Part shown: in pieces, positions 2,718-48,081 of the stretch
Layout: each line of letters starts with the position of its first letter
How positions within the stretch are numbered: the first letter of the stretch is position 1
Source of the DNA: an uncultured bacterium
GTDB taxonomy: Bacteria > Patescibacteriota > Minisyncoccia > Phycocordibacterales > UBA9973
Length of the DNA stretch: 64,000 nt
Assembly (NCBI GenBank): GCA_937903035.1
Contig: CALCZP010000002.1
Location: 20,739-84,738, forward strand
Direction of reading: 5' to 3'
Program-made: the position numbers and the translations under genes
The notes under the pieces: generated by a model
Seen by the model: the letters and a program-made list of their open reading frames with translations, nothing else
Database searches by the model: none
What the model was told of the DNA's origin: nothing

Positions 2718-2726
2718 TTTATTCAA

Positions 2727-3091: not shown

Positions 3092-3101
3092 TAAAAACTA
3101 G

Positions 3102-3131: not shown

Positions 3132-3163
3132 TTTTGTCTAAATTAGATTCAAACATCGTTCAA

Positions 3164-3195: not shown

Positions 3196-3246
3196 TCTGA
3201 TATTGACTCCTATTTAAAACCGACTAGACTGGAGAAAACATTTGCC

Positions 3247-3624: not shown

Positions 3625-3631
3625 ATGAATC

Positions 3632-4033: not shown

Positions 4034-4203
4034 CGTACGATGAATTTAAAAGAACTCTTTATGCGTTTTACAGAGGATAAAGAATACTCTGGAGCTATGA
4101 AGCAATCTTTCCGTACAGAAAGAACTATCTGCATCATAGCACAAAATAATTGACAAGTCAAGTATGATATGCTATCATACAGTTAAATCAAACTTAAAAA
4201 ATT

Positions 4204-4581
4204 ATGAACTATAAGCTTTTCTACACATGCCTTATAACATTCTTTGGCATGATGTTTTGGTTACTGTTTCAGCAGGGCTCTATGGACTTTATTGCTGTCA
4301 GAATAATCATCGCCTTTATCTCAGCAATCCTTCTTTTCTTTTCTGTAACATGGAATGAAAAAGGTGGTTGGAAAAAGGCAGTGGTAGTACTTCTGGTGAT
4401 AATAGGTTTCGGTTCAATCGCAAACTTTGCTTTTGGCTGGGGTATCGCACATTATCCAGGAATTACACTACTGACAATGCCAGGGATACTTGTTCTTGGA
4501 CTTTTATACATAAAGTTTGTGGAACCAAAAATTCTGAACAAAAAGCCAAAACAGAAAATGCGTCCTGAGATTTATAATTAA
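4204..4581 (+). CDS. small integral membrane protein (3-4 TM helices)
   Basis: Hydrophobic throughout. The upstream TTGACA (4150-4155) and extended -10 TGCTATCAT overlap the palindrome GTATGATA-TGC-TATCATAC (4162-4180). Confidence 0.5.
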   Translation: MNYKLFYTCLITFFGMMFWLLFQQGSMDFIAVRIIIAFISAILLFFSVTWNEKGGWKKAVVVLLVIIGFGSIANFAFGWGIAHYPGITLLTMPGILVLGLLYIKFVEPKILNKKPKQKMRPEIYN

Positions 4582-4769
4582 ACTAATTTGTCCTTTTACC
4601 GAAATGCCTCACTTAATAGTGGGGCTTTTTTCTTTCCTCCAGACCTTCACAACATACACAACGTTCACGTGCTCGCTTGGAGGAACGCATTTCGAACTTT
4701 TGACTGGGCTGAATTATACAGCGATACTAAGTTCCACTTAGAAAATACTAACAGGTTGCTTGCACTAGC

Positions 4770-6617: not shown

Positions 6618-6661
6618 GGTGTAATACTAGCATTTTTTGCCCTGTTTAAGTATTTCAAAAA

Positions 6662-7600
6662 ATGTTAAAATACACTTTACTTATGAGCAATGTAACAAAG
6701 CCCAAAAAAAGGACTTCAAAGAGCCTTAAAAACAAGAAGAAGTTTACTTTTATAGACTTATTTGCAGGGATCGGTGGCTTTCATTACGCTTTCCATAACG
6801 TAGGTGCAGAATGCGTCTTTTCTTCAGAATGGGACGAACACGCAAGAAAAACCTATCAGACCAACTTTGAAAAAATAAGTCCTGATCTATTTAAGTCTGG
6901 TAATTTTGTTGGAGATATTACAAAAGTAGATAAGAAAGCTATTCCTGATTTTGATATTTTGACGGGAGGATTTCCGTGCCAGCCATTTAGTCAGGCAGGG
7001 TTCAAAAAAGGTTTTAGTGATACGAGAGGCACACTTTTTTATGATATTGCGGACATAATCAAAGTTAAAAAACCTAAAGCTTTTTTCCTAGAAAATGTTA
7101 GAGGGCTTCTCGCTCACGATAACGGTAAAACTTTTGAAACGATCAAGAGTGTTTTGACTGAAGAGTTAGGATACTCACTATTTTTTAATATCGTTAAAGC
7201 TTCTGATCATGGCTTGCCTCAAAATCGCCCTCGACTATTTATGATCGGTTTTAGAAATAAGAAAATACCTTTTTCTTTCCCTGAAAAAAGACCCCTGGAG
7301 TTCACCATGTCAGATGTATTTGGTGAGCCTGTAAATCGTGATATTGGCTTTACTTTGCGTGTTGGTGGCAAAGGCTCTGTAATTACTGATAGACGAAATT
7401 GGGATAGTTATATGGTAAATGGAAAGCCTAAAAGATTATCCTCAAAGGAGGGTAAGAAAATGCAGGGGTTTCCAGATGACTTTGTTTTCCCAGTCTCTGA
7501 AAGTCAGGCAATGAAGCAATTAGGAAATAGCGTAGCCATATACGCCATACAAGATTACGCACAAAAGATAATTGAAGCACTTGAAAATCATTATGAATAA
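6662..7600 (+). CDS. DNA (cytosine-5)-methyltransferase, the modification subunit of a type II R-M system
   Basis: m5C-MTase motifs: I FIDLFAGIGGF, IV GGFPCQPFS, VI FLENVRGL, VIII QNRPRLFMIGF, X GNSVAI. The true start may be the internal Met at 6683. Confidence 0.9.
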   Translation: MLKYTLLMSNVTKPKKRTSKSLKNKKKFTFIDLFAGIGGFHYAFHNVGAECVFSSEWDEHARKTYQTNFEKISPDLFKSGNFVGDITKVDKKAIPDFDILTGGFPCQPFSQAGFKKGFSDTRGTLFYDIADIIKVKKPKAFFLENVRGLLAHDNGKTFETIKSVLTEELGYSLFFNIVKASDHGLPQNRPRLFMIGFRNKKIPFSFPEKRPLEFTMSDVFGEPVNRDIGFTLRVGGKGSVITDRRNWDSYMVNGKPKRLSSKEGKKMQGFPDDFVFPVSESQAMKQLGNSVAIYAIQDYAQKIIEALENHYE

Positions 7601-8675
7601 TCAAAAACAAACAACAGGAAATACAGGAGAATGGAGTGAGTTATACGCTCTCGCTTTTCTCTTGGCTAATGGTGGTGCATACGGTGCTGACAAAGATCAA
7701 AACAGAAAAGAGGATTTGTTCTACAAGGTTCTGAAGATAATCTTTGCTGAAAAAGTGGGTAAAGAAAAGATGACTTACGAAATCAATGATGGAGTTATCG
7801 ATGTCTTTGCAGGTTTGAATAAAATCGCCTCAATAAAAACACAAAAGATACAAAGCATTCTTAAAAAGATGTTCGAGACTTTATCTGCAAAAAATGTAGG
7901 GCGAGCCTTTCCACTAGAAGCAGGTTCAGAGATGATGCAACTCTTACAGAAACAAGTCATTAAGGCTTCAAGCTCAGATAAGAAAGACCTTGATCTAGTG
8001 GTTCTTGATCTGAAAACAAACCAGCCAAGTCCAGAGATTGGCTTCAGTATAAAATCCCAACTCGGAAGCCCCTCAACTCTAGTAAATGCTTCAAGTGCAA
8101 CAAACTTTACTTACGAGATACTTGATAAGGATATGAAAGTCCCTACGCAATTACCAAAATTGCACGAGAAAAATGTTAAAGATAACATCAATCTTTTGAT
8201 GGCTTCTGGATATAACATTGTTTTTCGTAAAGTAGACAGTGAGAAGTTTGAACACAACCTTTCTTTGATCGATAGCAATCTGGCGACATATATCGCAAAA
8301 ATACTTTTGTCATATTACGCACGAGAAGCAAGTAATTTATCGGGTCTAGTTTCTCATAACTTTCCTGCATCTGATCAACAGAGCAAACAGCCAACTCATA
8401 AGATAAAAGAGTTCCTGAGTATTATGGCTTTGGGAATGATGCCTAATACTGATTGGAATGGAATACTAACAAGTCTTGGAGGTTTTCTGTTGGTTAAAAA
8501 AGATGGTGATGTATTGTGCTATTACCTCTACAACCTCGAAGATTTCCAAGAATATCTGCTAAATAATACAAAGCTCGATACACCAAGCACCACTCGATAC
8601 GGAATTGGAAAAATCATAGAGGAAGACAATCGCTTTTATATAAAGCTCAATCTACAGGTTCGATTTACTAAATAA
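7594..8675 (+). CDS. Type II restriction endonuclease, HpaII-family-like
   Basis: The ATG at 7594 overlaps the MTase stop (ATGAATAA), which is typical R-M coupling. The N-terminus GNTGEWSELYALAFLLANGGAYGADKD matches my recollection of the conserved HpaII-family N-terminal block (GEWSELY...). ORF-track start 7572 trimmed to 7594. Confidence 0.6.
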
Positions 8676-8794
8676 ATTACACAAAAGATCGCTCTACACA
8701 TCTGTCTTTTTGAGGTGTTTTTCGATATAATGCAATTACAGCTGAATAAAGCCGACCTAACCCCTACAGCCTTAAAACTTTAGGATATGGTCGC

Positions 8795-8951
8795 AAACCG
8801 CAAGCAACGTAAAAACCCGATCATTAGGGCGTTGCTTGCGTTACATGGGGAAACCTGTGTATGAGTCTTCGGACTCACCTAGTGGTCGGATTTTTGCGTC
8901 TTACCCTCCTAGTTTTAAAAATAAAGCAAAACAAATCGCAAGCAACGATTA
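8795..8951 (+). promoter_or_regulatory. Structured leader in front of ORF 8951. CGCAAGCAACG occurs at 8799-8809 and again at 8937-8947 (the second copy abuts the ATG). A single complementary CGTTGCTTGCG lies at 8830-8840. A GAGTC-UUCG-GACTC hairpin lies at 8864-8878
   Basis: Read directly. Two identical segments compete for one complement, and the second copy covers the ribosome-binding region. Confidence 0.35.
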
Positions 8952-9379
8952 TGAATACAAACAATATCTCTTCCTGGAGTACAGGAAGAAAGTTAGTCGT
9001 TTTTTTATTAGTTCCCATCTTCATTGCAGTAGTCGTAGGTATGGCAAGCAGTCCAACTCCTGCTCCTGTCCAAAAGACGGCAGAAGAGATCGCATACCAG
9101 AAGAAGCATGACTTTGCTTCATTGGCGAAGATGAATGTCGAGATGATGCTCAAAGCTCCGTCTACAGCAAAGTTCAATACTTCTCCGACCATCAAGGAAG
9201 AGAATGGTATCTACTCGATCAACTCATGGGTTGATAGCGAGAACAGCTATGGAGCGATGATCAGAAGCCAGTGGTCAGCCAAGGCTCACTACATCGGAGG
9301 AGACTCTGAAGATGAGATCGGAACAGGCGCAAACTGGATCATTGACGAGTTCATTTTTGACGGGAAAAAGGTCAAATAG
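8951..9379 (+). CDS. membrane-anchored / secreted hypothetical protein (142 aa from the internal Met)
   Basis: N-terminal TM segment LVVFLLVPIFIAVVVGM. ORF-track start 8861 trimmed to the Met that follows the structured leader. Confidence 0.45.
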   Translation: MNTNNISSWSTGRKLVVFLLVPIFIAVVVGMASSPTPAPVQKTAEEIAYQKKHDFASLAKMNVEMMLKAPSTAKFNTSPTIKEENGIYSINSWVDSENSYGAMIRSQWSAKAHYIGGDSEDEIGTGANWIIDEFIFDGKKVK

Positions 9380-9390
9380 CAAATGATGCA

Positions 9391-9594
9391 TTAACAGTGG
9401 AAAAAACAGTGGTGAGGGGGTCAAAAACACGCAAAAAAACACGCAAAACGGTATCTGATCTTTTTGGACAATAACAGTGTGAAAAACAGTGTGGGGAGGA
9501 TCAAAAACAGTGAAAAAAACAGTGAAAAGTACCTCGAAAAGCATCACAAGAAAAAGTACATTAACAGCGATAAAAACAGCGAGAGAGGGTCAAA
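9391..9594. repeat. Iteron-like composite direct-repeat array of three ~37-bp units spaced ~80-88 bp apart. Each unit is a doublet of AACAGTG/AACAGCG separated by A5-6, followed by a G-rich TGAGGGGGTCAAAAAC-type tail. Interleaved doublets ACGCAAAA x2 and AGTGAAAA x2
   Basis: Units at 9391-9428, 9471-9508 and 9559-9594, read directly. They lie immediately upstream of the winged-helix gene 9630-10262. Confidence 0.6.
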
Positions 9595-9629
9595 TTGCGG
9601 TGTACTTTGTCGACAAAAAATACTAAAGT

Positions 9630-10262
9630 ATGTCTATGACAAAGTTGGCATCTAATGCAAACCAAAAAGTAAAGCTAATCCTAGAAAAAATCGTTGAAGA
9701 ATACGATTTAGGAAATGGTAGTGGCGACATCACACTAGGAAGTCATCATTTCCTAAAAGATACAGGTATAGATACTAATCAATTCCTAAGGATACTGAGA
9801 AATCTTGAACAGAACCATATTCTTGAAAGCTTTAAAGTGCACGCAAACGCTAGAACTGATGATGGCGATCTGGTCTGTTTCTTGAAGCCATTAAACCACT
9901 TTAAATCAAGAGCTGAAGATTATATTGAAAGACTTGAAGTTCCAGTAGAGTCTGCTCCTGGTTTCTTCTTGTATCTTGATAAAAGCAATTTTTGGCATAC
10001 TGATAAAAAGAAATACTCTTACCCGATGAATAACGCACCAGGACGTTTAGCGATCTTAAAATACCTAGCAGAAAACAAGGGAGTTCAACCTACTAAAGAA
10101 ATAGCTTCTTTTTTGGGTAGAACAACTAAAAGGATTATGAATGATGTGGGAAAAATAAGAGCAGAAATCAAAGAACATCTAAAGCTCCCAGATGTTATAG
10201 AAAACAGCAAGCCAGATGGTTACTACATCAACCCCAAGTATACAGTTATAGTTACTGACTAA
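9630..10262 (+). CDS. hypothetical DNA-binding protein (putative winged-helix). Candidate replication initiator or regulator acting on the upstream repeats
   Basis: 210-aa ORF. The C-terminal segment RLAILKYLAENKGVQPTKEIASFLGRTTKRIMNDVGKI is HTH/winged-helix-like. Its position next to the iterons is only suggestive. Confidence 0.45.
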   Translation: MSMTKLASNANQKVKLILEKIVEEYDLGNGSGDITLGSHHFLKDTGIDTNQFLRILRNLEQNHILESFKVHANARTDDGDLVCFLKPLNHFKSRAEDYIERLEVPVESAPGFFLYLDKSNFWHTDKKKYSYPMNNAPGRLAILKYLAENKGVQPTKEIASFLGRTTKRIMNDVGKIRAEIKEHLKLPDVIENSKPDGYYINPKYTVIVTD

Positions 10263-10382
10263 GTACTCTCGCTCTCCTGTTAATATCTAGGATCAATGTC
10301 TTATCTTAAAAAGGTTTTTTAAGATGTGAAGAGTACTAGAAGCGTATATACAGAGTACATATCTGACACATAAAATCATTAT

Positions 10383-10565
10383 GTGATCAGCGATGCAACA
10401 ATTAAGAAGTTCCAACAAGTAGTCGAGAGTGAGTACCATGTCATTCTTGATGAAAAGGAAGCGAGAGAAGTTCTCACTAACTGGGTTGGTTATTTTGACT
10501 TGCTTGCAAAGATCGATCACAGAATACAATCAGAAAGTCAGAGGTCGTTAGTGAGTCCTCTTTAA
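10383..10565 (+). CDS. small hypothetical protein (60 aa)
   Basis: ORF in a 530-nt gap. Sequence looks protein-like but has no RBS or motif support. Confidence 0.25.
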   Translation: MISDATIKKFQQVVESEYHVILDEKEAREVLTNWVGYFDLLAKIDHRIQSESQRSLVSPL

Positions 10566-10574
10566 AAAACCGAC

Positions 10575-10660
10575 TACTAACTTGTATTTGCATGTAGATA
10601 ATAGCGCCTGACACACTGAGTGAGACTTCTCAGCAGGCGACCTCATCTGCATACAAGTCA
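10575..10660. other. Nested imperfect inverted repeats (CTTGTATTTGCATGTAGAT ... ATCTGCATACAAG enclosing CGCCTG...CAGGCG). Candidate oriT, att or sRNA-like structured site
   Basis: Read directly. Lies upstream of the RHH-like small gene and the recombinase. Confidence 0.25.
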
Positions 10661-10792
10661 AGCAACTGTATCGAGATGTTTGCTATGAGGGGGTTGAAAC
10701 ATTTTGATAGATTTTTTGAAAAATTACTAATTTAACTATCCCAATCTGTAAAAAACCAATACAGATGAGGGAGGAAAAAGTCTAAACAAAAT

Positions 10793-11023
10793 ATGTCAAC
10801 AAAGAGACAAAAGCTATATAGCAAAGAAGATATTAAGCTTGCACAAGAAGAAAGTAAAAGAGTTGGAAAATACTTTACTCGTAAAACAGCCAAAAGGAAA
10901 ACAATACAGGTTAGGATCGGTGAAAAATGGCATCAAAAGATCAAAGAAGTCGCTGGTGAAGAAAAGATAATGATTTCATTTTTTCTTGATCGAGTTTGTG
11001 AGCACTTCTTTAAGCATTACTAA
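10793..11023 (+). CDS. small basic protein (76 aa), possibly a ribbon-helix-helix DNA-binding protein (MobC-, Arc- or RDF-like)
   Basis: Good SD (AGGGAGG) 8-14 nt upstream. Lys/Arg-rich. The KTIQVRIGEKWHQKIKEVA segment is compatible with an RHH beta-strand plus helix. It sits directly 5' of the recombinase. Confidence 0.45.
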   Translation: MSTKRQKLYSKEDIKLAQEESKRVGKYFTRKTAKRKTIQVRIGEKWHQKIKEVAGEEKIMISFFLDRVCEHFFKHY

Positions 11024-11038
11024 TTATTTACTAATCAC

Positions 11039-12610
11039 ATGAATAAACCAACAAAAACAAAAGCCGTTATATATGCCAGAGTTTCTTCTAAAGAGCAGGA
11101 AGAAACTGGCTACTCATTAAACTCACAAGAGGAGCTTCTAAATAATTACTCAACAAGTCGAAACGACTTCAATGTAGTAAAAGTATTTAGGATTTCTGAG
11201 TCTGCGAGTGGGAAAATCCAGCGCACAACCTTTACTGAAATGATTAAGTTTATGGACAAGAATAAAATAAATATCCTTGTCTGTGAGAAAGTCGATCGAC
11301 TCACGAGAAACTTCAAAGATGCATTGATTATCGATGAATGGCTAGATCAGGATGAAAACCGACAGGTGCACTTGGTCAAGGACTCTCTAGTGATGCATAA
11401 GCATTCAAAATCGCAAGAAAAGCTTAACTGGGGTATTAGAATACTCTTCGCAAAAAATTACACAGACAATCTTTCTGAAGAAGTTAAAAAGGGTCAGAAG
11501 CAAAAAATAAAAGAGGGTTGGCTACCAACCACTCCTCCACTTGGTTATAAAACTGTAGGAGAAAAAGGACATAAAATCCATGTGATCGATGAGACTGTTG
11601 CACCCTATATAAAAGAAATGTTTGCCTTGTATGCCACAGGTAATTATTCAACAGTTGCGTTGGGAGAAAAAATGTACAAACAAGGCTTCCGAAGTCGATC
11701 AGGTGTTCAGGTAGTAAAAAGCCAAATACATAAAATACTCTCTGAGCCTTTTTATTACGGAAAACTTGTATGGAATGGAAATCTTTTTGAGGGCAAACAC
11801 GACCCACTTATCTCAAAAGATTTGTTTGATCAGGTTCAGGCAAAAATGTCTCGTGGTGCAATACCGTATCACAATAAAGGGCTTACTGAGTTAAGAGGTA
11901 AAATCTTCTGCGGTTCTTGTAATAAAACCGTTACTTGGGAATTACAAAAAGGCACTATGTATGGTGGTTGTAAGCAGTGTAAGGCACAGCTTGGCAAAGA
12001 TAAGAAGTATATCCACCAGGAAGACCTAGAAAGCGATCTACTGGCTCATATTGCCTCTGTAGCTCCTCTTAGTGAGAAAGTTATAGATGTGCTTAATCAG
12101 GCTTTAAAAGAGAGCCACAGTGAGGAAATAGGGCTACATGAGACTCAAACCAGGAACATCAACAATCAACTAGAAAGAATAAGGCAGAGAATGAAAAACA
12201 TGTACCTGGACAAGATTGATGAGAGAATAAGCGGAGACTTCTACGATGAGCAGGTCGCACAGTTTGCAGAAGAAAAAGAAGCATTACTCCACTCTCTGAA
12301 AAAACTCGAAGCAGATAATACTGAATACTACCGAGTTGGATTTATGATCCATGAGATTGCACTGAGAGCGAGAGAGATTTATCTCAATGAAAACGCATCG
12401 ATTGAAGAGCGCAGAATGCTTCTTGCTTATGCATTCTCGAACATCACTGTTTTAGCAGGAAATATAAAGGCAGAATACACAAAACCTTTTGCTTTTCTTG
12501 CAGAATGGATGCCAAGAGTAAATGAAGTTCTCGAACTGGAAAAAACCCTTGGTACAAAAGGAAAAGAGAGCACTTTCGTGCCCTCTCATCCTATCGTGCT
12601 CCCCCGGTAG
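11039..12610 (+). CDS. large serine recombinase (resolvase/invertase N-terminal catalytic domain, recombinase domain, zinc ribbon and coiled coil)
   Basis: N-terminal VIYARVSSKEQ with catalytic Ser, and DRLTRN. Zinc ribbon CGSCNK...CKQCK. 523 aa. The stop codon overlaps the tRNA-Asn 3' end. Confidence 0.9.
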   Translation: MNKPTKTKAVIYARVSSKEQEETGYSLNSQEELLNNYSTSRNDFNVVKVFRISESASGKIQRTTFTEMIKFMDKNKINILVCEKVDRLTRNFKDALIIDEWLDQDENRQVHLVKDSLVMHKHSKSQEKLNWGIRILFAKNYTDNLSEEVKKGQKQKIKEGWLPTTPPLGYKTVGEKGHKIHVIDETVAPYIKEMFALYATGNYSTVALGEKMYKQGFRSRSGVQVVKSQIHKILSEPFYYGKLVWNGNLFEGKHDPLISKDLFDQVQAKMSRGAIPYHNKGLTELRGKIFCGSCNKTVTWELQKGTMYGGCKQCKAQLGKDKKYIHQEDLESDLLAHIASVAPLSEKVIDVLNQALKESHSEEIGLHETQTRNINNQLERIRQRMKNMYLDKIDERISGDFYDEQVAQFAEEKEALLHSLKKLEADNTEYYRVGFMIHEIALRAREIYLNENASIEERRMLLAYAFSNITVLAGNIKAEYTKPFAFLAEWMPRVNEVLELEKTLGTKGKESTFVPSHPIVLPR

Positions 12611-12670
12611 GATTCGAACCTACGACCAATCGCTTAACAGGCGACTGCTCTACCGCTGAGCTACAGGGGA
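12599..12670 (-). tRNA. tRNA-Asn (anticodon GUU)
   Basis: Minus-strand sequence TCCCCTGTAGCTCAGCGGTAGAGCAGTCGCCTGTTAAGCGATTGGTCGTAGGTTCGAATCCTACCGGGGAG folds as a canonical cloverleaf (7-bp acceptor, GCTC/GAGC D-stem, anticodon loop CTGTTAA, T-loop TTCGAAT). It begins UCCCCUG like enterobacterial tRNA-Asn. No CCA is encoded. Confidence 0.85.
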
Positions 12671-24559: not shown

Positions 24560-25870
24560 ATGAAACCAAACTTTCAAACAATCATTCTCATTGTGTTTAT
24601 CGTCGCATTTATTGGTGCGGTCTTGGCGTTCTCTGGTCTTATTGGTTCAAGTTCAACCACAACAACTAGCTCATCTGGTACAGCCCAGATTACTGTATGG
24701 GGCATCCTTCCCAACAACCAAATGCAACAGTATGTTGAGCGATTTAATACAAGTGGCAGTGGGTCAACTATTGTATATGTGGAGCGTGCGCCAGAAAATT
24801 TCTATCAAGATGTTATCACTGCTATCGCAAATGGTACTCCTCCAGATGCACTGATTCTTTCATCAGAACTTTTGTCGCAGTTTAAGTCACGGCTTTATAT
24901 TACGTCCTATCAAACCTACAATGAACGTACGTTTCGTGATACCAATGTTGATGGCGCGCAACTCTTTTTGGACAAGGACGGTGTCGTAGCATTCCCACTC
25001 CTTGTTGATCCGTTGGTTGTATATTACAACAAGGATATTCTTGCTTCACAAAATTTTGTCGTACCGCCGACAACATGGACAGACCTTCAGTCAACACTCC
25101 CATTTTTTCTGAAGCGTGATATCAAAAATGCTATTATCCAAACACCACTTGCGCTTGGAGATGCAACAAATGTGACACATGCTCGCGATATTTTATCAGC
25201 GCTTTTTCTCCAAACAGGTAACGCTATTGTTTCATATGATCCTATTTCAGGACAAAATGCGGCAGTGCTTGGTCGTTCTTCGGCAAACAGTACAACACTT
25301 CCTACTGCTGAAGCGTTGACGTTTTATACCAGCTTTTCAAATCCAACGAGTAGTAACTATACTTGGAACAGCTCACTGCCTTCGAGTCTACAAATGTTTT
25401 TGGCCGGAAGATCGGCGTTTTATATTGGTCGTTCGAGCGAGCTGTTTACTATCCAACAGCAAAATCCAAATTTAAACTTTGATGTTGCGCCATTCTTTCA
25501 GTCAGAAGCAGCTACTCGTCCGGTAACTTTCGGTTCTTTTGTTGCAATTGCATTACTCAAGAATTCTCCTAATATTGCAACGGCATATCCTACAGCACTC
25601 GCACTCTCTTCAAAAGAGAATATTGATACCTTTTCCAAAATATTTGGGTTGCCACCTGCTCGACGTGACTTACTACTGCTACAGCAGTCAAATCCTTATG
25701 TATCAATATTCTTCAAGGCAGCACTATCTGCATTTGCCTGGGCTGATCCTGATCCTATTGCTACAGAAAAAATCTTTCGTGATATGATACAGGATGTTAC
25801 CAGTGGTCGTGCTGACACCCAGTCAGTGATATTTGATGCAAACACTAACCTTCAATCAGCAATTCGCTAA
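24560..25870 (+). CDS. membrane-anchored extracellular solute-binding-protein-like protein
   Basis: N-terminal TM anchor, Ser/Thr-rich linker, then a ~380-aa domain with SBP (family-1)-like composition. Weak family call. Confidence 0.4.
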   Translation: MKPNFQTIILIVFIVAFIGAVLAFSGLIGSSSTTTTSSSGTAQITVWGILPNNQMQQYVERFNTSGSGSTIVYVERAPENFYQDVITAIANGTPPDALILSSELLSQFKSRLYITSYQTYNERTFRDTNVDGAQLFLDKDGVVAFPLLVDPLVVYYNKDILASQNFVVPPTTWTDLQSTLPFFLKRDIKNAIIQTPLALGDATNVTHARDILSALFLQTGNAIVSYDPISGQNAAVLGRSSANSTTLPTAEALTFYTSFSNPTSSNYTWNSSLPSSLQMFLAGRSAFYIGRSSELFTIQQQNPNLNFDVAPFFQSEAATRPVTFGSFVAIALLKNSPNIATAYPTALALSSKENIDTFSKIFGLPPARRDLLLLQQSNPYVSIFFKAALSAFAWADPDPIATEKIFRDMIQDVTSGRADTQSVIFDANTNLQSAIR

Positions 25871-25871
25871 A

Positions 25872-26453
25872 ATGTCTCGATGCATAGTGGGTATTGCTGT
25901 TATCGCATGTGCTCTTGTGGTCACTCCACTGCAGTATAGTGATCTTTCTGCACAAAATGTAACACAATGTAATGACGGTAAAGACAATCAGGTTGGTGAC
26001 GGTAAAGACTGGGGACTCGGAGTTAATAATGGTGATGGAAAAGCTGATTATTATGGCGTTGATACGACTACTCCTCCAGATGGCCAGCTCGATCTTGAAC
26101 CTGATCCAGCGTGTGTTTCAGTCAAAGACCCCACTGAAGACGCAGATGATGTTGTAAAGGGGAGTCTGATACCATGCACCAACAAATGTACTTTTTCGGA
26201 TGTGTTCAAGCTTATCAATGGGCTTTTGTCTTTTTTCATTAAAACCTTGTTGATTCCTATTTTCATCATTCTGTTGATGTATGCAGGCTTCAAATACATC
26301 ACTGCGCAAGGCAACCCTGCCAAAACAGCAAATCTCAAAAAAATGTTTGGCAATATGATACTCGGACTTGTACTTGTACTGTGCTCATGGCTCATCGTAC
26401 ATACCATCCTCAGTATGCTTGGGTATACGGAAGGTTTATCATTGTTTGGATAA
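25872..26453 (+). CDS. VirB2/TrbC-like (T4SS-pilin-like) surface protein, paralogue 1. Variable Cys/Asp-Gly-Lys-rich ectodomain plus a conserved C-terminal two-TM module
   Basis: C-terminal module TM1 (LLIPIFIILLMYAGFKYI), loop TAQGNPAKTANLKK, TM2 (MILGLVLVLCSWLIVHTIL). The same architecture is seen in the next four genes. Start moved to the Met at 25872 to avoid a 38-nt overlap. Confidence 0.5.
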   Translation: MSRCIVGIAVIACALVVTPLQYSDLSAQNVTQCNDGKDNQVGDGKDWGLGVNNGDGKADYYGVDTTTPPDGQLDLEPDPACVSVKDPTEDADDVVKGSLIPCTNKCTFSDVFKLINGLLSFFIKTLLIPIFIILLMYAGFKYITAQGNPAKTANLKKMFGNMILGLVLVLCSWLIVHTILSMLGYTEGLSLFG

Positions 26454-26472
26454 TACGATATACTGTAGTCAC

Positions 26473-26931
26473 ATGAATTTTTTGAAAAAAACTTTCTCAA
26501 TACTCATTATGCTCAGTTTTTTTCTCGGAGCATTTACTGTATCTCATTCTGTAGCTTTTGCGCAGGGGATAAAAAATACTGATCAAGCTCCAGGTATCAA
26601 AAATACTGATAAGTGTGACAGTCGCCTTGGCTGTACTTCTAGTGCAACTGTCTTCAAGCTCGGTATTAAGCTCAACAATCCGCTCAAGGTAAATACCATA
26701 CAGGATGCGATCAAGTTCTTCTTGAATACTATTATGAAGATTGCACTCCCGTTTATTGTTGTATTCTTTATTTGGTCGGGACTCAGTTTTATTCTTGCTC
26801 GTGGTAATCCTGAGGGTATCAAAAAAGCAAAAAACATGTTCCTCTATACAATTATTGGCACACTGCTTATTCTCGGAGCATGGGCGATTACGAACGCTAT
26901 TATCGGAACAGTTAATACTATTACGAGTTAA
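26473..26931 (+). CDS. VirB2/TrbC-like pilin-like protein, paralogue 2
   Basis: Signal peptide MNFLKKTFSILIMLSFFLGAFTVSHSVAFA. C-terminal module ...IVVFFIWSGLSFILARGNPEGIKKAKNMFLYTIIGTLLILGAWAI. Start trimmed from 26368. Confidence 0.5.
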   Translation: MNFLKKTFSILIMLSFFLGAFTVSHSVAFAQGIKNTDQAPGIKNTDKCDSRLGCTSSATVFKLGIKLNNPLKVNTIQDAIKFFLNTIMKIALPFIVVFFIWSGLSFILARGNPEGIKKAKNMFLYTIIGTLLILGAWAITNAIIGTVNTITS

Positions 26932-31367: not shown

Positions 31368-31449
31368 GCTGGAGTGGCGGAATTGGTATACGCGCTAGTC
31401 TTAGGAACTAGTGCCGCAAGGCTTAAGGGTTCAAGTCCCTTCTCCAGCA
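31368..31449 (+). tRNA. tRNA-Leu (anticodon UAG), class II with a long variable arm
   Basis: GCTGGAG/CTCCAGC acceptor stem, anticodon loop CTTAGGA, variable hairpin GCC-GCAA-GGC, T-arm AAGGG-TTCAAGT-CCCTT. Confidence 0.8.
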
Positions 31450-31465
31450 CAGTTTAAATTAATAT

Positions 31466-31538
31466 GCTCCTATAGCTCAGTTGGTAGAGCAGCTCCCTCT
31501 TAAGGAGACGGTCGTGGGTTCGAATCCCTCTGGGGGCA
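31466..31538 (+). tRNA. tRNA-Lys (anticodon CUU)
   Basis: GCTCCTA/TGGGGGC acceptor stem (two G-U pairs), D-arm TAGCTCAGTTGGTAGAGC, anticodon loop CTCTTAA, T-loop TTCGAAT. One T-T mismatch in the T-stem. Confidence 0.7.
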
Positions 31539-31550
31539 CTATAGATATAC

Positions 31551-31592
31551 AAAACAAAAAACACTAAATATATTTAGTGTTTTTTGTTTTGT
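31551..31592. terminator. Perfect 21-bp AT-rich palindrome (CAAAACAAAAAACACTAAATA|TATTTAGTGTTTTTTGTTTTG) between convergent tRNA genes. Bidirectional terminator-like
   Basis: Read directly. Confidence 0.45.
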
Positions 31593-31595
31593 ATT

Positions 31596-31620
31596 GGGGG
31601 CGGGACTCGAACCCGCACGC
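31596..31620 (-). repeat. 25-nt duplicate of the tRNA-Leu(UAA) 3' end (T-arm plus acceptor: GTGCGGGTTCGAGTCCCGCCCCCA). No 5' half is foldable, so this is a partial tRNA and a candidate att-site scar
   Basis: Identical to 31664-31688 (plus-strand coordinates). The 40 nt between the copies do not form D or anticodon arms. Confidence 0.5.
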
Positions 31621-31660
31621 CGTATAAGGGCAAGGGATTTTAGTAATTTCACCACCACAG

Positions 31661-31743
31661 TGCTGGGGGCGGGACTCGAACCCGCACGGCATTGCTGCCT
31701 GAGGATTTTAAGTCCTCTATGTCTACCATTCCATCATCCCAGC
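31661..31743 (-). tRNA. tRNA-Leu (anticodon UAA), class II
   Basis: Minus strand GCTGGGATGATGGAATGGTAGACATAGAGGACTTAAAATCCTCAGGCAGCAATGCCGTGCGGGTTCGAGTCCCGCCCCCAGCA. Anticodon stem GAGGA/TCCTC, loop CTTAAAA, variable hairpin GGCA-GCAA-TGCC. One A-C mismatch at the base of the acceptor stem. Confidence 0.7.
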
Positions 31744-31813
31744 ACTCTGGAGGCGAAACAAAAATCTCCCGATGTACATTCCATCATCAATTTCACCTAA
31801 AAGGACATTTTGG

Positions 31814-31885
31814 AGACCCGAGCGAGAATCGAACTCGCGAATAGTTCTTTTGCAGAGAACCGCCTTACCACTTGGCCATCGGGTC
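31814..31885 (-). tRNA. tRNA-Cys (anticodon GCA)
   Basis: Minus strand GACCCGATGGCCAAGTGGTAAGGCGGTTCTCTGCAAAAGAACTATTCGCGAGTTCGATTCTCGCTCGGGTCT. Perfect acceptor, anticodon and T stems. Confidence 0.85.
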
Positions 31886-42493: not shown

Positions 42494-45400
42494 ATGAAGC
42501 AAACAAGTAGTATGTTGATCGTTGTGTATGTACTTTTAAGTGTGACAACTTGTTTTGCTGATACTACTATTAGTGACGATATAGTAGTCGATACGATCTG
42601 GGGTTCAAATGAAAGTGTGTATGTTATTGATCGCAATATTTCAGTAGCCGATACTAGTACATTGACAATACTTCCTGGTGTTACGATTCTGATGGATGAA
42701 GGTGTAGCGATCACAGTCAAAGGTACACTTGCTGCGCAAGGTATTCCTGAATCTACTATACGTGTTACAGGAAAGACAATCACAAGTCATGTACTTGCTC
42801 CACCACCTGAACCAGCTGAAGGAGAAGTATTATCAGAAGAAGTTGAGCCAGTATATATCGACGAAGTTACAACGCTACTCCCAAAAGGATTTGTTTTTGA
42901 GCCCGGATCACGTGGAGTACTGAGCTATATTTCTATCGATCATGCAACTGATCCGATTGAGGGTATTGATGCGAGTATTGCTATTGATAATGCAATACTC
43001 GCTGATGCAATCACTGGTATTCATCTCACTGGTGGCGTACTATCGGTGCTCAATACCTTGTTTATGAGTATTGTTGTTCCTGCTAAGATTGGACTTAGTG
43101 TCGACTTTTCGCATGACAATAATACATTTACCGATACACAATATCCTGGATGGAATTTCTTTGGGGATGGGTATAACCAGGATGTGCATCTTGTGGCAGG
43201 AGATGGTGTATATATTCTCTCAAGCTCACTCTCGATTGCGGCGGAGCACAGTATTACGATTGATCCAGGTGCAACACTCCTGCTTGCAAATAATGTGTCG
43301 GTGAACGTTTATGGTAAGCTCACCGCACAAGGCACTGCCGATGAACCGATTGCGATTGCGCCGCTTTTACCAACTATGCGAAGTAGTGTATTCGTCATGT
43401 CGGACGATCCGATAGTATTTGAACACGTGAACTATTCGCTCGGTGAAGAATTATTTTTTGCTCAGACAAACCATATCACTATTGCACATAGTACATTTGT
43501 GAAAAGTCCTGTCGCAGGATTTGCAAGTACTGCTCGCATTTCCGATACAACTTTTTCTGACCTACCCAATGATGCTGCACTGAGTTTTTGGGGTAATGCA
43601 AAAGTAGAAGGAGATCATATAACTATTCATACTGTCGATACCGGAATCGAGATCTTTAATGAGAGTTCACTTGTGTTGAGTAATGCAGATGTCACCGATA
43701 CCTATAATGGTATTCAAATCTTTGGTGCAAGTACTGCAGCTATATCCCATAGTCATATCACTCAAAGTGAAAATACAGGTATTGCTATCTATAACACGGA
43801 GATGTTGGCGAGTAAGATCACTGTCTCCTACAGTGAGATTGCACACACAGACTATGGAATGTTCATCACCTATCAAAAGCCTGGTGATATAGCAGTAGCG
43901 CGCACTAGCTTTCATGATAATACTGTTGCAGTGTTTGTAACTGAGTCAACAGTTATTGACCTTTCAAATAATTGGTGGGGAAGCGATACGGGGCCTAGGA
44001 TCGATGCAAATCCTGGAGGTGTCGGAGATGAGGTTGATGGCCCTATCACTGTGACTCCATGGCTCAAGTCTGATCCAGTGCTTGGCAATGATCCAGTCAT
44101 TATTGTGCCCGGTATTAATGGAACCAGGTTACTTGAGGGTGATGAAGAGGTCTGGCCGCGACAACTCTCACTCCTCCTGAGTCCATTTGATACTTATCTC
44201 AATAGCTTGAAACTATTGGTAACAGGAGAAGTTGACCCAGCGCATAATATCGCAGTTGGAGATATTATTCGCGATGTGCCAGGGAGTGATATTTTCCAAG
44301 GATTGATTACAGAACTTATAAAAAACGGGTATCAAGAAGGGGTTGATCTCTTTGTACTGCCGTATGACTGGCGACTGAGTAATACCGTTAACGCACCACT
44401 TTTGAAAGCAAGGATTGATGAAGCACTACGCAAAAGCGGCAAGGAAAAAGTCGACATTGTCGCGCACAGTATGGGCGGTGTCCTGGCAAAAGAATATATT
44501 GCAACGTTCGGCAAAGGTAGTGTTGATCAGCTCATATTTGTAGGTACTCCTCATCTCGGTGCGCCAAAAGCGTATAAGGCATTGATGTATGGAGATGATA
44601 TGGGTATTACAAAATTTGGTATATCACTTTTGAGTCAGCAAAGAATAAAATCTATTTCTCAAAACATGTCATCTATGTTTGAACTATTGCCAAGTCAGCA
44701 GTATGTCGCTCAGCATGGCTCGTATGTTAAAGACGAGGTAGGTGACTACGTGGCATCTGATCGTACCGATCGATGGCTCAATTATGACGAGACCAAAGAC
44801 TTCATGGCGCGCCAAGGCCGAAATACTGCACTCTTTCCGGTTGCCGAGGATGTGCATATGCGTACCGACAACATCGATCTCTCTGACATCAGAACAACTA
44901 ATATTGTGGGATGTGGTACTGGTGCATTGTCGTCAATCTCCATGACGAGAGGATGGAGCTTCAAGCCGCTCGGCATACCACTCGTGAATGACATTGATAT
45001 CGGCTACGCGATCGGGGATGGGACGGTGCCGGTCGCAAGTGCAAAGCTTGATACGAGTGATAGTCAGTATTTCAGCACAGTTGGTACGCATGGATCATTG
45101 CCTTCCATTCCGCAAATACGAGAAGGGATTGTAGCATTGCTGATCGGTAGGCATCCTGTCGTATCGCATGAATTTTCAACCAATGGCAGGAACTGTATCG
45201 AAGGTGGAACGATTATCGGCATCCATAGTCCGGTGACGCTTGATATCTATGATGAGGATTGGCGACATGCAGGTCCTGATGCTGCGGGTGTACTAGAAGA
45301 ACACATCCCGGGGGTCACATACGACATGTTCGGTGACAAGAAATTCGCATTTCTCCCGATGGGTGCAACGTATCGTGTAGTCAACCATGCCGAAGGTTTG

Positions 45401-45934
45401 GGCGAGTACGACATGTCGGTGGTGCACGTCGATGGTGATGGATCAGTATATGATGCACAGTACTTCGTTGATATACCTATCACGAGCATGACACAATCTG
45501 CGGAGACGGTGGTTGATACCACCAGTGGTGAAGAGTACATCATGCATATTGATGAGGATGTTGACGGTAGTTCTGATCACGAGCATGTATCAATAGCTAC
45601 TCCTCCGATTACACAAGTGCAGCAGCTAGCAGCAGACTCAACCCGGTCTACTGGGACTAATACTCATGGAACTTCAGTTATACGTGAGGATGCTTCACCA
45701 GAAGTGCAAAAGGTTGTTCTCAATGCATCATCAAAAGATGTGTTGGTAGTCCAGAATGAACATGAAGCTCCTGCTGATGTTGTTGTTTCCACGACAGAGA
45801 TGATCCATGAAGATGAGCAGTCTTTGGCAGCAGCTTCAACCTATGGCGTTGTTGCAAAGTCGCATCGGTTGGTACTGCTTGCAATTCTGACTATTGTCAT
45901 CGGATTCGGTATTCGCAAAGTTTTTATGAGATAA
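42494..45934 (+). CDS. large cell-surface protein. Domain order: signal peptide, right-handed parallel beta-helix (PbH1 repeats, ending NWWGSDTGP), LCAT/PGAP1-like alpha/beta-hydrolase lipase domain, C-terminal TM anchor
   Basis: Lipase domain: PVIIVPGINGTRL, PYDWRLS (the LCAT-family YDWR motif), nucleophile elbow AHSMGG, and a later GTHGSLP histidine. Beta-helix repeats such as ITIAHSTFV..., GIEIFNES..., GIQIFGAS..., GIAIYNTE.... C-terminal LVLLAILTIVIGFGI anchor. Confidence 0.75.
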   Translation: MKQTSSMLIVVYVLLSVTTCFADTTISDDIVVDTIWGSNESVYVIDRNISVADTSTLTILPGVTILMDEGVAITVKGTLAAQGIPESTIRVTGKTITSHVLAPPPEPAEGEVLSEEVEPVYIDEVTTLLPKGFVFEPGSRGVLSYISIDHATDPIEGIDASIAIDNAILADAITGIHLTGGVLSVLNTLFMSIVVPAKIGLSVDFSHDNNTFTDTQYPGWNFFGDGYNQDVHLVAGDGVYILSSSLSIAAEHSITIDPGATLLLANNVSVNVYGKLTAQGTADEPIAIAPLLPTMRSSVFVMSDDPIVFEHVNYSLGEELFFAQTNHITIAHSTFVKSPVAGFASTARISDTTFSDLPNDAALSFWGNAKVEGDHITIHTVDTGIEIFNESSLVLSNADVTDTYNGIQIFGASTAAISHSHITQSENTGIAIYNTEMLASKITVSYSEIAHTDYGMFITYQKPGDIAVARTSFHDNTVAVFVTESTVIDLSNNWWGSDTGPRIDANPGGVGDEVDGPITVTPWLKSDPVLGNDPVIIVPGINGTRLLEGDEEVWPRQLSLLLSPFDTYLNSLKLLVTGEVDPAHNIAVGDIIRDVPGSDIFQGLITELIKNGYQEGVDLFVLPYDWRLSNTVNAPLLKARIDEALRKSGKEKVDIVAHSMGGVLAKEYIATFGKGSVDQLIFVGTPHLGAPKAYKALMYGDDMGITKFGISLLSQQRIKSISQNMSSMFELLPSQQYVAQHGSYVKDEVGDYVASDRTDRWLNYDETKDFMARQGRNTALFPVAEDVHMRTDNIDLSDIRTTNIVGCGTGALSSISMTRGWSFKPLGIPLVNDIDIGYAIGDGTVPVASAKLDTSDSQYFSTVGTHGSLPSIPQIREGIVALLIGRHPVVSHEFSTNGRNCIEGGTIIGIHSPVTLDIYDEDWRHAGPDAAGVLEEHIPGVTYDMFGDKKFAFLPMGATYRVVNHAEGLGEYDMSVVHVDGDGSVYDAQYFVDIPITSMTQSAETVVDTTSGEEYIMHIDEDVDGSSDHEHVSIATPPITQVQQLAADSTRSTGTNTHGTSVIREDASPEVQKVVLNASSKDVLVVQNEHEAPADVVVSTTEMIHEDEQSLAAASTYGVVAKSHRLVLLAILTIVIGFGIRKVFMR

Positions 45935-45943: not shown

Positions 45944-46210
45944 ATGAAAAAACTGCATTATTTGTTTGTTCCATTAATTTTGAACTTAGCTGGTTTTATT
46001 TTTGAGGATCAGTGTGCTGGCACTATATGTTTTTATCCAGGTAGAGGATTTCCATTGGCGTATTATCACAATCAGGCATTCAACATAGGTACCTTCTTGG
46101 TTGACTATGCAATGCTCGCAGTGGTTTGGTTTATTGGATTTAAAACAGTGCGGCATTTCGTCAAAAAGAAACATCACGAAACACCGGAGTTTACCAGTCA
46201 TCCCTTGTAG
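45944..46210 (+). CDS. small membrane protein (88 aa)
   Basis: Two hydrophobic helices. Confidence 0.35.
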   Translation: MKKLHYLFVPLILNLAGFIFEDQCAGTICFYPGRGFPLAYYHNQAFNIGTFLVDYAMLAVVWFIGFKTVRHFVKKKHHETPEFTSHPL

Positions 46211-46225: not shown

Positions 46226-46399
46226 ATGCGGATCAAGACCTATCTTTTCATTATTATTGTGGCATTTGTTGCAAGTGTGGTTGCGTATAGCATTATCCGC
46301 AAGGCATATGCAGATATGGAAACGATTGACCTGGATCAGTTTGAGGGCGGGGCAATGATCGAGGATGTATCGGTCGCCGATGAGGAGGTGGAACTATGA
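46226..46399 (+). CDS. small membrane-anchored acidic protein (57 aa), translationally coupled to the helicase (its TGA overlaps the helicase ATG: ATGA)
   Basis: MRIKTYLFIIIVAFVASVVAYSII TM helix plus an acidic tail. Below the ORF-track cutoff. Confidence 0.35.
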   Translation: MRIKTYLFIIIVAFVASVVAYSIIRKAYADMETIDLDQFEGGAMIEDVSVADEEVEL

Positions 46400-48081
46400 C
46401 GCAGGCAGAAGCACTGAACATTATGAAGACCGGTGCGAATGTCTTCCTCACGGGTGAGCCCGGGAGTGGCAAGACGCATACCGTGAACGCGTACGTCGAC
46501 TACTTGCACGAGCATGGCATTGATCCGGCAATCACAGCATCGACGGGTATTGCCGCAACACACATTCATGGCCAGACGATTCATTCATGGAGTGGTATTG
46601 GTATCAAGGGAATGCTCACCCCGTATGATATCGATCACATCGCATCGACGGAGTATCTGTCGCGTCGCATTCGCAAAACCACTGTGCTCATCATTGATGA
46701 GATTTCGATGATCGAAGCAAATACACTCGATATGGTGGACATGGTCTGTCGTGAAGTCAGACAAAGTGAGGAACCCTTTGGTGGACTGCAGGTGATACTG
46801 GTAGGAGATTTCTTTCAGCTCCCACCTGTGACCAAAGGTGGGACTGCGCCCCGCTTTGCATTTCAGTCTGCGGTCTGGCAGACGATGAAGCCGCTCGTAT
46901 GCTATCTCTCAGAGCAACACCGTCAGGCTGATGAACGACTACTTTCGCTCCTTGCGGCGATCCGTACCAACGAAGTGATGGACGATCACTTGAGCTATCT
47001 GCATGATCGTATCGCAAGCGAGGGCGACATCTATGATGATCCTGATATCACCAAGCTTTTCCCACATAATGTCGACGTCGATGGACTCAATGATCGTGCG
47101 ATCGCATCCCTCGAAGGCACGTCCATGCGCTATGACATGACTGAGCAGGGCAAGGAGTCGCTCGTCGCCGGACTCAAGAAAGGCTGTCTCTCGCCTGAGA
47201 CACTGATACTCAAGATTGGTGCGGTGGTGATGTGTACGAAAAACAATCAACAGAAAGGCTATGCCAATGGCACGATCGGCACCGTTATGCGATTTGAGTC
47301 TGATACGAAATATCCGGTCATTCGCACGCGCTATGGTGATGAGATCACGATCGAGCCGTCCGACTGGAGTATTGAGGAAAATGGCAAGGTCAAGGCACGC
47401 ATCACGCAGCTGCCGCTCCGTCTCGCATGGGCGATCACGGTACACAAGAGTCAGGGTATGTCACTTGATGCAGCGGTGATGGACTTGCGCGAAGTGTTTG
47501 AATACGGCCAAGGGTATGTTGCACTCTCGCGTGTTCGCACACTCAAAGGACTCTATCTCCTTGGATTCAATGAGCGAGCATTTATGGTGCATCCGGTGAT
47601 CCTTGAAGCGGATGCCGGCATGCGCAAGCTCTCGCGCGAAGCACAGTCGGTGTTTATGGATATTGAGAAAGGAGAGCTTCAGGCAATGCATGACAGATTT
47701 ATCCTCGCCGCAGGTGGTACGGTCGCCAAGCGCAAAAAAACAAGTGAAGGAAAACTCGAAAAAATAAAAAGAGATACCACTGATATCACGTACGATATGG
47801 TCAAGGAAGGGAAGTCTATTCTCGAGATCGCCAAAGCACGCAAGATGGTATGGACGACAATCATCGGTCACATCGAAAAGCTCGTTGAAGCTGGTAAGCT
47901 CACCTGGACAGATGTCTCGCAGTATTTTAGTCCCGATCTTCTCGAAGCATTACCTGAGATCGAGCAGGCATTTCTGGTGACTGACTCTGCAATGCTCACT
48001 CCGGTCCGCGAGAAACTCAACGGCAAGTATTCATTCGACACCCTCCGTCTTGCACGCATCGCACTTAAGCTCCAGAAATAA
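46396..48081 (+). CDS. Pif1/RecD-family ATP-dependent DNA helicase (AAA_30 plus a C-terminal HTH-like domain)
   Basis: Walker A TGEPGSGKTH, motif II LIIDEISM, and PLRLAWAITVHKSQG (motif V/VI, typical of the RecD/Pif1 family). Confidence 0.75.
   Translation: MTQAEALNIMKTGANVFLTGEPGSGKTHTVNAYVDYLHEHGIDPAITASTGIAATHIHGQTIHSWSGIGIKGMLTPYDIDHIASTEYLSRRIRKTTVLIIDEISMIEANTLDMVDMVCREVRQSEEPFGGLQVILVGDFFQLPPVTKGGTAPRFAFQSAVWQTMKPLVCYLSEQHRQADERLLSLLAAIRTNEVMDDHLSYLHDRIASEGDIYDDPDITKLFPHNVDVDGLNDRAIASLEGTSMRYDMTEQGKESLVAGLKKGCLSPETLILKIGAVVMCTKNNQQKGYANGTIGTVMRFESDTKYPVIRTRYGDEITIEPSDWSIEENGKVKARITQLPLRLAWAITVHKSQGMSLDAAVMDLREVFEYGQGYVALSRVRTLKGLYLLGFNERAFMVHPVILEADAGMRKLSREAQSVFMDIEKGELQAMHDRFILAAGGTVAKRKKTSEGKLEKIKRDTTDITYDMVKEGKSILEIAKARKMVWTTIIGHIEKLVEAGKLTWTDVSQYFSPDLLEALPEIEQAFLVTDSAMLTPVREKLNGKYSFDTLRLARIALKLQK

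Follow-up and report, generated by a model that had tools for sequence, protein, structure and literature searches.

An LCAT-family hydrolase within an anchored surface protein of CPR bacteria and its possible use on the membrane lipids of other cells

A gene for a 1146-amino-acid (aa) surface protein was analyzed in a 64-kb stretch of DNA from an uncultured bacterium of the candidate phyla radiation (CPR), which is referred to in full as the window (64,000 nucleotides of contig CALCZP010000002.1). Sequence, motifs and fold all place the core of the protein in the LCAT family (PF02450), together with human lecithin:cholesterol acyltransferase (LCAT), lysosomal phospholipase A2 (LPLA2) and PDAT. 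There is good support for predicting an interfacial phospholipase A or acyltransferase that faces outward, and the protein is very probably an active, extracytoplasmic LCAT-type lipase or acyltransferase. Its main use might be the deacylation of membrane lipids of a host or neighbouring cell, which would supply fatty acids and lysolipids to a lipid-auxotrophic producer; the chances for and against this use appear to us about evenly balanced. The identical protein is recorded in NCBI, MGnify, ENA and Logan assemblies, on contigs of up to 106 kb. The window was assigned to a CPR bacterium of the Paceibacteria/Minisyncoccia (Parcubacteria) class because the best named relatives of its GyrA, 78-82% identical, are Candidatus Nomurabacteria, Paceibacterota, Pacebacteria, Minisyncoccia and members labelled "Patescibacteria group". 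An earlier note on this DNA had made the scavenging argument conditional on a CPR-type organism, which the GyrA relatives and the full-length homologues in CPR genomes bear out.

The LCAT-type family proposed in that note was supported by the Pfam score, by comparison of the family profile with PDB sequences and by a fold search. In the Pfam search, the LCAT, Beta_helix, NosD and PGAP1 profiles all exceeded their curated cut-offs. The LCAT match scored 90.3 bits (cut-off 21, E=2e-25) and aligned aa 598-749 with positions 66-220 of the 392-position profile, which leaves the C-terminal half of the model uncovered; PGAP1 reached 27.6 bits (cut-off 24.3, E=2.9e-6). When a profile of 119 relatives was compared with PDB sequences, LPLA2 and LCAT were matched with E-values of 1.5e-17 and 1.8e-16, respectively. 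The motifs PVIIVPG, PYDWR, AHSMG, GxPxxGxxKxxxxLxxGD and GDGTV were aligned with both enzymes by this profile, as was the hydrophobic WPN...L-L-L segment of the membrane-binding subdomain. Invariance was counted in 251 family sequences, and the YDWR signature was present in all 249 relatives that could be scored. An AlphaFold model of the core, computed from the 119-sequence alignment, reached a pLDDT of 94.5 and a pTM of 0.93. Foldseek matched this model to LPLA2 (4x90) with E=2.5e-16 and a TM-score of 0.71 on the target, and to LCAT (5txf) with a TM-score of 0.70. Minimal lipases aligned with the model over just ~165-210 residues; the ~110-150 extra aligned residues relative to them were therefore attributed to the LCAT-specific membrane-binding and cap subdomains, both of which are borne by the α/β-hydrolase core. 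The cysteines of LPLA2 (YLCSKK, IIDCWID) that form the membrane-binding-subdomain disulfide of LPLA2 and LCAT had no counterpart in the family profile alignment. This disulfide is a lineage trait of the eukaryotic enzymes and not a catalytic requirement.

A Ser-Asp-His triad can be assigned to the core. In the predicted structure, Ser659 lies between strand E128-133 and helix H135-147, which corresponds to the nucleophile elbow, and Asp842 directly follows strand E305-316. The loop behind strand E332-336 holds His866, just where a helix begins; α/β hydrolases canonically carry their histidine at this post-β8 position. Each of the three residues was found in 249 of 249 relatives, and the whole triad was intact in all 248 sequences that cover the three positions. 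The proposed triad thus consists of invariant residues that occupy canonical topological positions in the model, His866 being assigned by invariance and topology. A pseudoenzyme, or a catalytically dead adhesin, was ruled out because the triad is invariant in those 248 relatives. Checking of the translation placed all the motifs named in the earlier note exactly where it had put them (Table 1). Its domain order was also correct as listed, except that it had overlooked the catalytic aspartate (D842, in GDGTVP) and a conserved β-sandwich of ~130 aa behind the hydrolase.

The export and outward orientation of the protein are supported by its two ends and by a cysteine pair. Cys807 and Cys901 were both cysteine in 237 of the 251 sequences, and Cys901 was also lost in six of the six sequences that lack Cys807. 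As both residues are conserved and lost together, they probably form an interdomain disulfide that ties the hydrolase to the β-sandwich. This putative disulfide, the signal peptide and the C-terminal anchor together argue for an extracytoplasmic location, and hydropathy and residue counts agree with the signal peptide, acidic stalk and C-terminal transmembrane (TM) anchor that had been claimed for the protein. The homologues have N-termini equivalent to the signal-peptide region. The β-sandwich between the hydrolase and the stalk appears specific to the family, and no Pfam family was found for it. The 95-aa stalk contains 14 acidic and 4 basic residues.

The C-terminal layout of a TM segment and a short tail is shared with many relatives. 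Although such a hydrophobic segment and short tail are present, the LPXTG sorting motif is absent from the C-terminus of the protein. A motif of the L-A-A-A-S or L-T-A-S type stands 10-15 aa upstream of the hydrophobic segment both here and in many relatives. The C-terminal tails of the relatives fall into recurrent types. Type 1, to which the present protein belongs (window 45830-45934, aa ~1113-1146), consists of L-[TSALV]-A-[SA]-[VAS], a spacer of 10-15 aa, a TM segment and a short tail, which many relatives have in basic form; this amounts to a sortase-signal layout without LPXTG. Type 2 ends in NTA[IV]VYKSF...LWSWIKSKL and is amphipathic and rich in W and K, and type 3 is K/E-rich and helical. 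No other ORF (open reading frame) of the window has a type 1 tail. These tails may be CPR-specific sorting or anchoring signals. In addition, many relatives (at loci L002, L003, L006 and L007, and among the protein hits for example P0036-P0039 and P0043) carry an extra domain after the β-sandwich with the pattern SGVLKTEYSxDGxxW...YxSTDxAGNxE; it is absent from the present protein, which has the acidic stalk in its place.

The N-terminal half was described in the earlier note as ~500 aa of PbH1 β-helix repeats. This description holds for the C-terminal ~180 aa of the region, where Pfam detected Beta_helix (PF13229; 42.5 bits, cut-off 25.9, E=6.8e-11, aa 324-463) and NosD (PF05048; 34.3 bits, cut-off 23.6, E=2.1e-8, aa 320-495), whereas the N-terminal 307 aa (aa 24-330) matched no Pfam family at E<=1. 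The remaining part is nevertheless likely to be β-helix as well, since residues 30-95 align with the N-termini of homologues (DTxW...YVI...TLTIxPG), which are themselves repeat-rich. In the motif that closes the helix, N493, W495, G496, G500 and P501 were invariant in a five-sequence alignment.

From these features a mode of action can be proposed. The signal peptide would direct Sec export, and the C-terminal TM segment would keep the protein on the cell or form part of a sorting signal together with the L-x-A-S motif. The ~95-aa acidic stalk would raise the ectodomain above the membrane. The N-terminal β-helix, as the distal and most variable module of the family, would probably bind a surface polymer of the partner cell, and the conserved core of hydrolase and β-sandwich would dock on the lipid interface. 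Ser659, with His866 and Asp842, could then attack a glycerolipid at an acyl ester, so that a lysolipid leaves and an acyl-enzyme remains. Transfer of the acyl group to water would release a free fatty acid; alternatively, an alcohol would accept it in a transacylation of the kind known from LCAT and LPLA2. We suppose that this would take place in trans on the membrane of the partner cell. More speculatively, the products might be converted by a fatty-acid kinase to acyl-phosphate that PlsY could use; the PlsX gap described in PMC7242380 would thereby be filled. Beyond the core itself, we infer host-membrane lipid as the substrate, and likewise the direction of action, product uptake, binding by the β-helix and the disulfide.

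The scavenging of host lipids is plausible because fatty acids and lysolipids are what a lipid-auxotroph needs, and it fits the published lysolipid data. CPR membranes have been reported to be fatty-acid-based and rich in lysolipids, and breakdown of the phospholipase A type has been suggested as the supply (PMC7242380). The same deacylation would weaken the host membrane too. Several points weigh against this use. His866 could not be aligned in sequence with the histidine of LPLA2 or LCAT, and when the 90-aa Asp-to-His segment was compared with PDB sequences by phmmer, only chance matches came back. Substrate and catalysis are both assigned from sequence and fold. Among bacterial structures the closest is that of Tle4, which is a toxin, and the β-helix, being typical of polysaccharide-active proteins, may leave room for a non-lipid ester substrate. 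The neighbourhood of the gene is of the housekeeping type and contains no lipid-uptake or activation genes (FakA/B, PlsX/Y/C), so that it lends no guilt-by-association support. Finally, the presumed lack of lipid synthesis is taken from the CPR literature (PMC7242380, PMC11665869) rather than from the genome in question; no fab, pls or other genes of fatty-acid and phospholipid synthesis were found among window ORFs of at least 150 aa, which, at 64 kb, says little about the genome.

A non-lipid esterase was considered in connection with the β-helix, which in that case would bind polysaccharide while the enzyme acts on polyhydroxyalkanoate, on O-acetyl or acyl groups of wall polysaccharide, or on lipoteichoic-type polymers. 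Modules of the β-helix/NosD kind are indeed common in polysaccharide-active enzymes. The PhaZ7 NCBIfam profile, however, scored 16.5 bits against a cut-off of 450, the LPLA2 match was much stronger and more extensive, and many family members lack a β-helix altogether, so that we judge such an activity very improbable.

The family to which the protein belongs is apparently very large and CPR-wide. A scan of the GTDB species genomes returned six full-length homologues with 32-39% identity over ~1000 residues, all from CPR metagenome-assembled genomes (MAGs) and with the identical order of parts. A word-indexed search with the whole protein gave 8 matches only, and the family was revealed only by the core profile (aa 526-1028) and by an exhaustive search of representatives. 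The core profile matched 1044 proteins at E<=1e-5 among 8000 candidates; the best 120 matches were all below 1e-114 with core coverage of 92-100%. Nomurabacteria, Zambryskibacteria, Parcubacteria, Pacebacteria and Patescibacteria were named among the best of these matches, and homologues also occurred in Minisyncoccia MAGs. Among 1.84 billion representatives of 50%-identity clusters, the exhaustive search found 9928 proteins when the threshold was E<=1e-3; 4055 of them remained at E<=1e-10 and 908 at E<=1e-30, with most of the top matches 900-1400 aa long. Database labels leave the members unnamed, as "hypothetical protein" or "alpha/beta hydrolase". Presence in DPANN archaea was considered and rejected, as the sole "Nanoarchaeota" homologue (P0036) lies on a 2.3-kb contig that was not trusted. 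Nothing describing the family, or linking LCAT or PF02450 to Patescibacteria, Parcubacteria or CPR, was found in the papers searched, and searches for Saccharibacteria lipases and Southlakia were likewise unproductive.

The members differ most in front of the core, where the preceding sequence ranges from 0 to 724 aa and consists of a β-helix, DUF5018 or nothing. Fast divergence was also evident between close relatives. In the syntenic sister genome GCA_964517945.1 (locus L013, CAZFFL010000003.1, 4538-8079), the lipase protein is only 64% identical, as against 98% for GyrA and 95% for the PIF1 helicase next to it. By part, identity to the sister orthologue is 78% in the hydrolase, 62-65% in the helix, 67% in the sandwich and ~20% in the stalk; at the nucleotide level it is 69-71% in the lipase gene against 76-88% in the flanks. 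In the NCBI assembly of L013 the gene was called for the C-terminal 692 aa only, and the N-terminal part of this orthologue may be disrupted or mis-assembled. The variable N-terminal modules, together with 64% identity as compared with 95-98% for the neighbouring proteins, suggest the signature of a protein engaged in host interaction.

The divergence and the variable, possibly targeting modules would equally suit a conflict protein, that is, an offensive phospholipase that chiefly damages the host membrane as Tle4 does, causing nutrient leakage or lysis with only incidental gain of lipid. LCAT-family lipases are known as type VI secretion system (T6SS) cargo in Proteobacteria (PMC3942780), secreted phospholipases of predatory CPR bacteria have been put forward as host-membrane disruptors (PMC8080830, PMC11665869), and a small membrane protein encoded directly downstream of the gene could give self-protection. 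This small protein, however, is not family-wide (it is absent from L009, L011 and L012), no T6SS or other delivery genes were found in the window, and the protein appears anchored to its producer, being neither injected nor released. Moreover, the family is widespread in Paceibacteria, which are mostly not known as lytic. A chiefly offensive role is thus a possibility to be taken seriously, if an unlikely one, and attack and scavenging are not mutually exclusive.

The divergence bears in the opposite direction on remodelling of the producer's own membrane, in which the enzyme would act in cis to make the CPR lysolipids or to transacylate the cell's own lipids or surface molecules. The tether in its own membrane through a flexible ~95-aa stalk would permit the ectodomain to fold back, and the LCAT family is defined by transacylation besides hydrolysis. 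Lysolipids also make up an unusually large share of the lipids attributed to CPR (PMC7242380). A housekeeping enzyme would nevertheless not be expected at 64% identity when its neighbours stay at 95-98%, nor would large interchangeable distal modules (β-helix, DUF5018 or none), and the large distal β-helix would point outward. Action in cis was accordingly considered improbable.

If scavenging from a partner cell is indeed the use of the enzyme, a broader proposal can be made, to which we give little credence at present. Paceibacteria-type CPR in general might acquire their lipids through this family, which would act as an LCAT-like transacylase at the cell surface, take acyl chains off partner phospholipids and pass them to the cell's own outer-leaflet lysolipids or, as free fatty acids, to a kinase-PlsY-PlsC route, with the N-terminal module setting the host range. 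This would account for both membrane building in lipid-auxotrophic CPR and the lysolipid richness of their membranes. CPR/Patescibacteria represent a large share of bacterial diversity and have fatty-acid-based membranes, apparently without the pathways to make them. The family offers a concrete enzyme candidate for the way in which CPR acquire membrane lipids from other cells or attack them there, found in hundreds of divergent CPR lineages. Should it serve membrane attack instead, CPR would still have in it a widespread effector of their interaction with hosts, and the variable N-terminal modules together with the L-x-A-S C-terminal signal may mark CPR surface proteins.

Table 1 Coordinates of the lipase gene, its parts and other features discussed (window positions unless a homologous locus is named)
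Feature	Position	Strand	Basis or remark
Whole gene, 1146-aa surface protein, stop codon included	42494..45934	+	ORF list; uninterrupted, ATG start
Predicted Sec-type signal peptide, aa 1-22 (MKQTSSMLIVVYVLLSVTTCFA|D, ending CFA|D)	42494..42559	+	Hydrophobic window aa 4-26, read from the sequence by eye
N-terminal region, aa 23-319, probable start of β-helix, acidic/Pro-rich insert at ~aa 100-135	42560..43450	+	Alignment with homologues
Right-handed parallel β-helix, aa 320-495	43451..43978	+	Pfam Beta_helix, NosD
NWWGSDTGP motif closing the β-helix, aa 493-501	43970..43996	+	Alignment, translation
LCAT/LPLA2-family α/β hydrolase, aa 530-885, including membrane-binding and cap subdomains	44081..45148	+	
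PYDWR, LCAT-family signature, aa 623-627	44360..44374	+	Aligns to PYDWR of LPLA2 and LCAT
Putative catalytic nucleophile Ser659 (AHSMGG, aa 657-662)	44468..44470	+	Aligns to LPLA2 AHSMGN, LCAT GHSLGC
Cys807, one of just two core Cys	44912..44914	+	Co-variation with Cys901
Putative catalytic acid Asp842 (GDGTVP)	45017..45019	+	NGDGTVPlkSA aligns to LPLA2 GDGDGTVNLKSA, LCAT EDGDDTVATRS
Putative catalytic His866 (THGSLP, aa 865-870)	45089..45091	+	Invariance and topology
Family-specific β-sandwich, aa ~895-1025 (~130 aa), motif HSPVxLxIYDxxxxHxGP	45176..45568	+	
Cys901, probable disulfide partner of Cys807	45194..45196	+	Co-variation
Acidic low-conservation stalk, aa 1026-1120, with L-A-A-A-S motif	45569..45853	+	Residue counts, alignment
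C-terminal TM anchor (RLVLLAILTIVIGFGIRKV), aa 1125-1143, short tail FMR, stop codon	45866..45934	+	Hydropathy 2.2-2.3
88-aa small membrane protein, 10 nt downstream of lipase, possible partner	45944..46210	+	ORF list
114-119-aa ~3-TM downstream protein	L002 13438-13782; L003 13985-14329; L006 13692-14051; L007 12755-13096; L010 6743-7090		
PIF1-family helicase	window 46396-48081; L009 2778-4442; L010 1618-3207; L012 1532-3235; L013 8540-10225		
Element at window 1-12670: OLD-family nuclease	4770-6617	-	
Element at window 1-12670: HpaII-type C5 methylase	6662-7600		
Element at window 1-12670: HpaII endonuclease	7572-8675		
Element at window 1-12670: LOOT RNA (Rfam RF03000)	8754-8877		74 bits
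Element at window 1-12670: large serine recombinase	11039-12610		End abutting tRNA-Asn (12598-12670, -)

The gene stands among GluRS, a SpoU methylase, small hypothetical ORFs and the PIF1-type helicase, and the window as a whole encodes pyruvate kinase, Fmt, Def, HisRS, LepB, S1, GyrA, IF-2, ClpB, GluRS, TrmD and RpoB/C as housekeeping genes. No second LCAT-like ORF was found in the 64-kb window, and a promoter and terminator scan around the lipase gene gave matches at chance level only. The 88-aa ORF downstream of the gene is kept in the sister genome as an ORF of 89 aa. At five homologous loci, a protein of 114-119 aa with ~3 TM segments (N-terminus xxIxNLFHTDKWWGKTIFI) is encoded directly downstream of the lipase on the same strand; it may be a partner of the lipase or protect the producer from it. 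Pfam gave no match to the 88-aa ORF, to the 130-aa ORF upstream of the lipase or to the 114-aa partner of relatives. A conserved operon partner was rejected, as the 3-TM protein is not homologous to the 88-aa ORF of the window and is absent in L009, L011 and L012. A PIF1-family helicase adjoins the lipase gene, or lies within two genes of it, at loci of different CPR genomes, five in all, and nothing obvious links the two in function; its C-terminal HTH_40 domain was found in the window, L009 and L013. At L002, the upstream neighbour of the lipase gene, which is oppositely oriented (8620-9690, -; N-terminus MNTIPGLRIKNFELPYCIIQGGMGAGVSG) resembles, by eye only, a nitronate monooxygenase or FabK-type flavoprotein. 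If it were FabK, a lipid-synthesis gene would stand beside the lipase in a CPR genome.

Elsewhere in the window, two adjacent ORFs of 206 and 187 aa with T4SS_pilin (PF18895), followed by a 309-aa ORF without a family, occupy positions 25833-26931 and are preceded by a solute-binding protein (24560-25870). Four tRNA genes lie within ~520 bp at 31368-31885, Leu-TAG and Lys-CTT on the plus strand and Leu-TAA and Cys-GCA on the minus strand. Positions 1-12670 have a low GC content, 36-39% as compared with 42-49% elsewhere, and look like an integrated mobile element.

Among known systems, LPLA2 (group XV PLA2; 4x90) and LCAT (5txf, 4xwg) are the nearest to the core. Both enzymes transfer acyl groups as well as hydrolyse, and the LCAT family yields lysolipids. 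They have in common with the present protein the motifs PV(I/V)xVPG, PYDWR, (A/G)HS(M/L)G, GxPxxGxxKxxxxLxxGD and GDGTV, the same order of Ser, Asp and His with similar spacing, and action outside the cytoplasm, which for the present protein is predicted. However, identity is only ~17-21%, and the comparison is between eukaryotic enzymes and a bacterial one from CPR. The protein has its own cysteine pair, which would lead from the hydrolase to the added β-sandwich, instead of the cysteines of the LPLA2 membrane-binding subdomain. Its core is set in a 1146-aa anchored surface protein with β-helix, stalk and TM segment, and the sterol or ceramide context of the eukaryotic enzymes is missing in bacteria.

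Tle4 of Pseudomonas aeruginosa (TplE, PA1510; 4r1d) also resembles the core in fold, with a lower match than that of LPLA2. It is a phospholipase effector that depends on the T6SS for delivery and has Tli4 as its immunity protein, whereas the present protein would be exported by Sec and held by a TM anchor; Tle4 also has neither a β-helix nor a C-terminal β-sandwich, both of which occur here. No T6SS genes (VgrG, Hcp, PAAR) and no cognate periplasmic immunity gene were found in the window or at the related loci. Membership in the T6SS effectors was ruled out by this lack of T6SS genes and by the Sec signal plus anchor.

A C-terminal β-sandwich is known from two other secreted lipases or esterases, BlEst2 of Bacillus licheniformis (6wpx) and EstA3 of Thermoanaerobacter tengcongensis. 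The sandwich of BlEst2 inhibits the pro-form and that of EstA3 is needed for long-chain substrates; the likeness to the present protein lies in this layout, with homology not implied. Within CPR, phospholipases have been mentioned generically (PMC11665869). The closest idea was put forward for Vamp_34_196 of Vampirococcus lugosii, proposed to be a phospholipase that this lipid-auxotrophic CPR bacterium secretes, and with which it may both break open the host membrane and gain host phospholipids (PMC8080830). Vamp_34_196 is one gene of a single Absconditabacteria predator, in contrast to a family that is LCAT-type, anchored and spread across Paceibacteria; the two are likened by description, not by sequence. 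While the LCAT family itself is already known, what is new here is its occurrence in a CPR-specific surface architecture.

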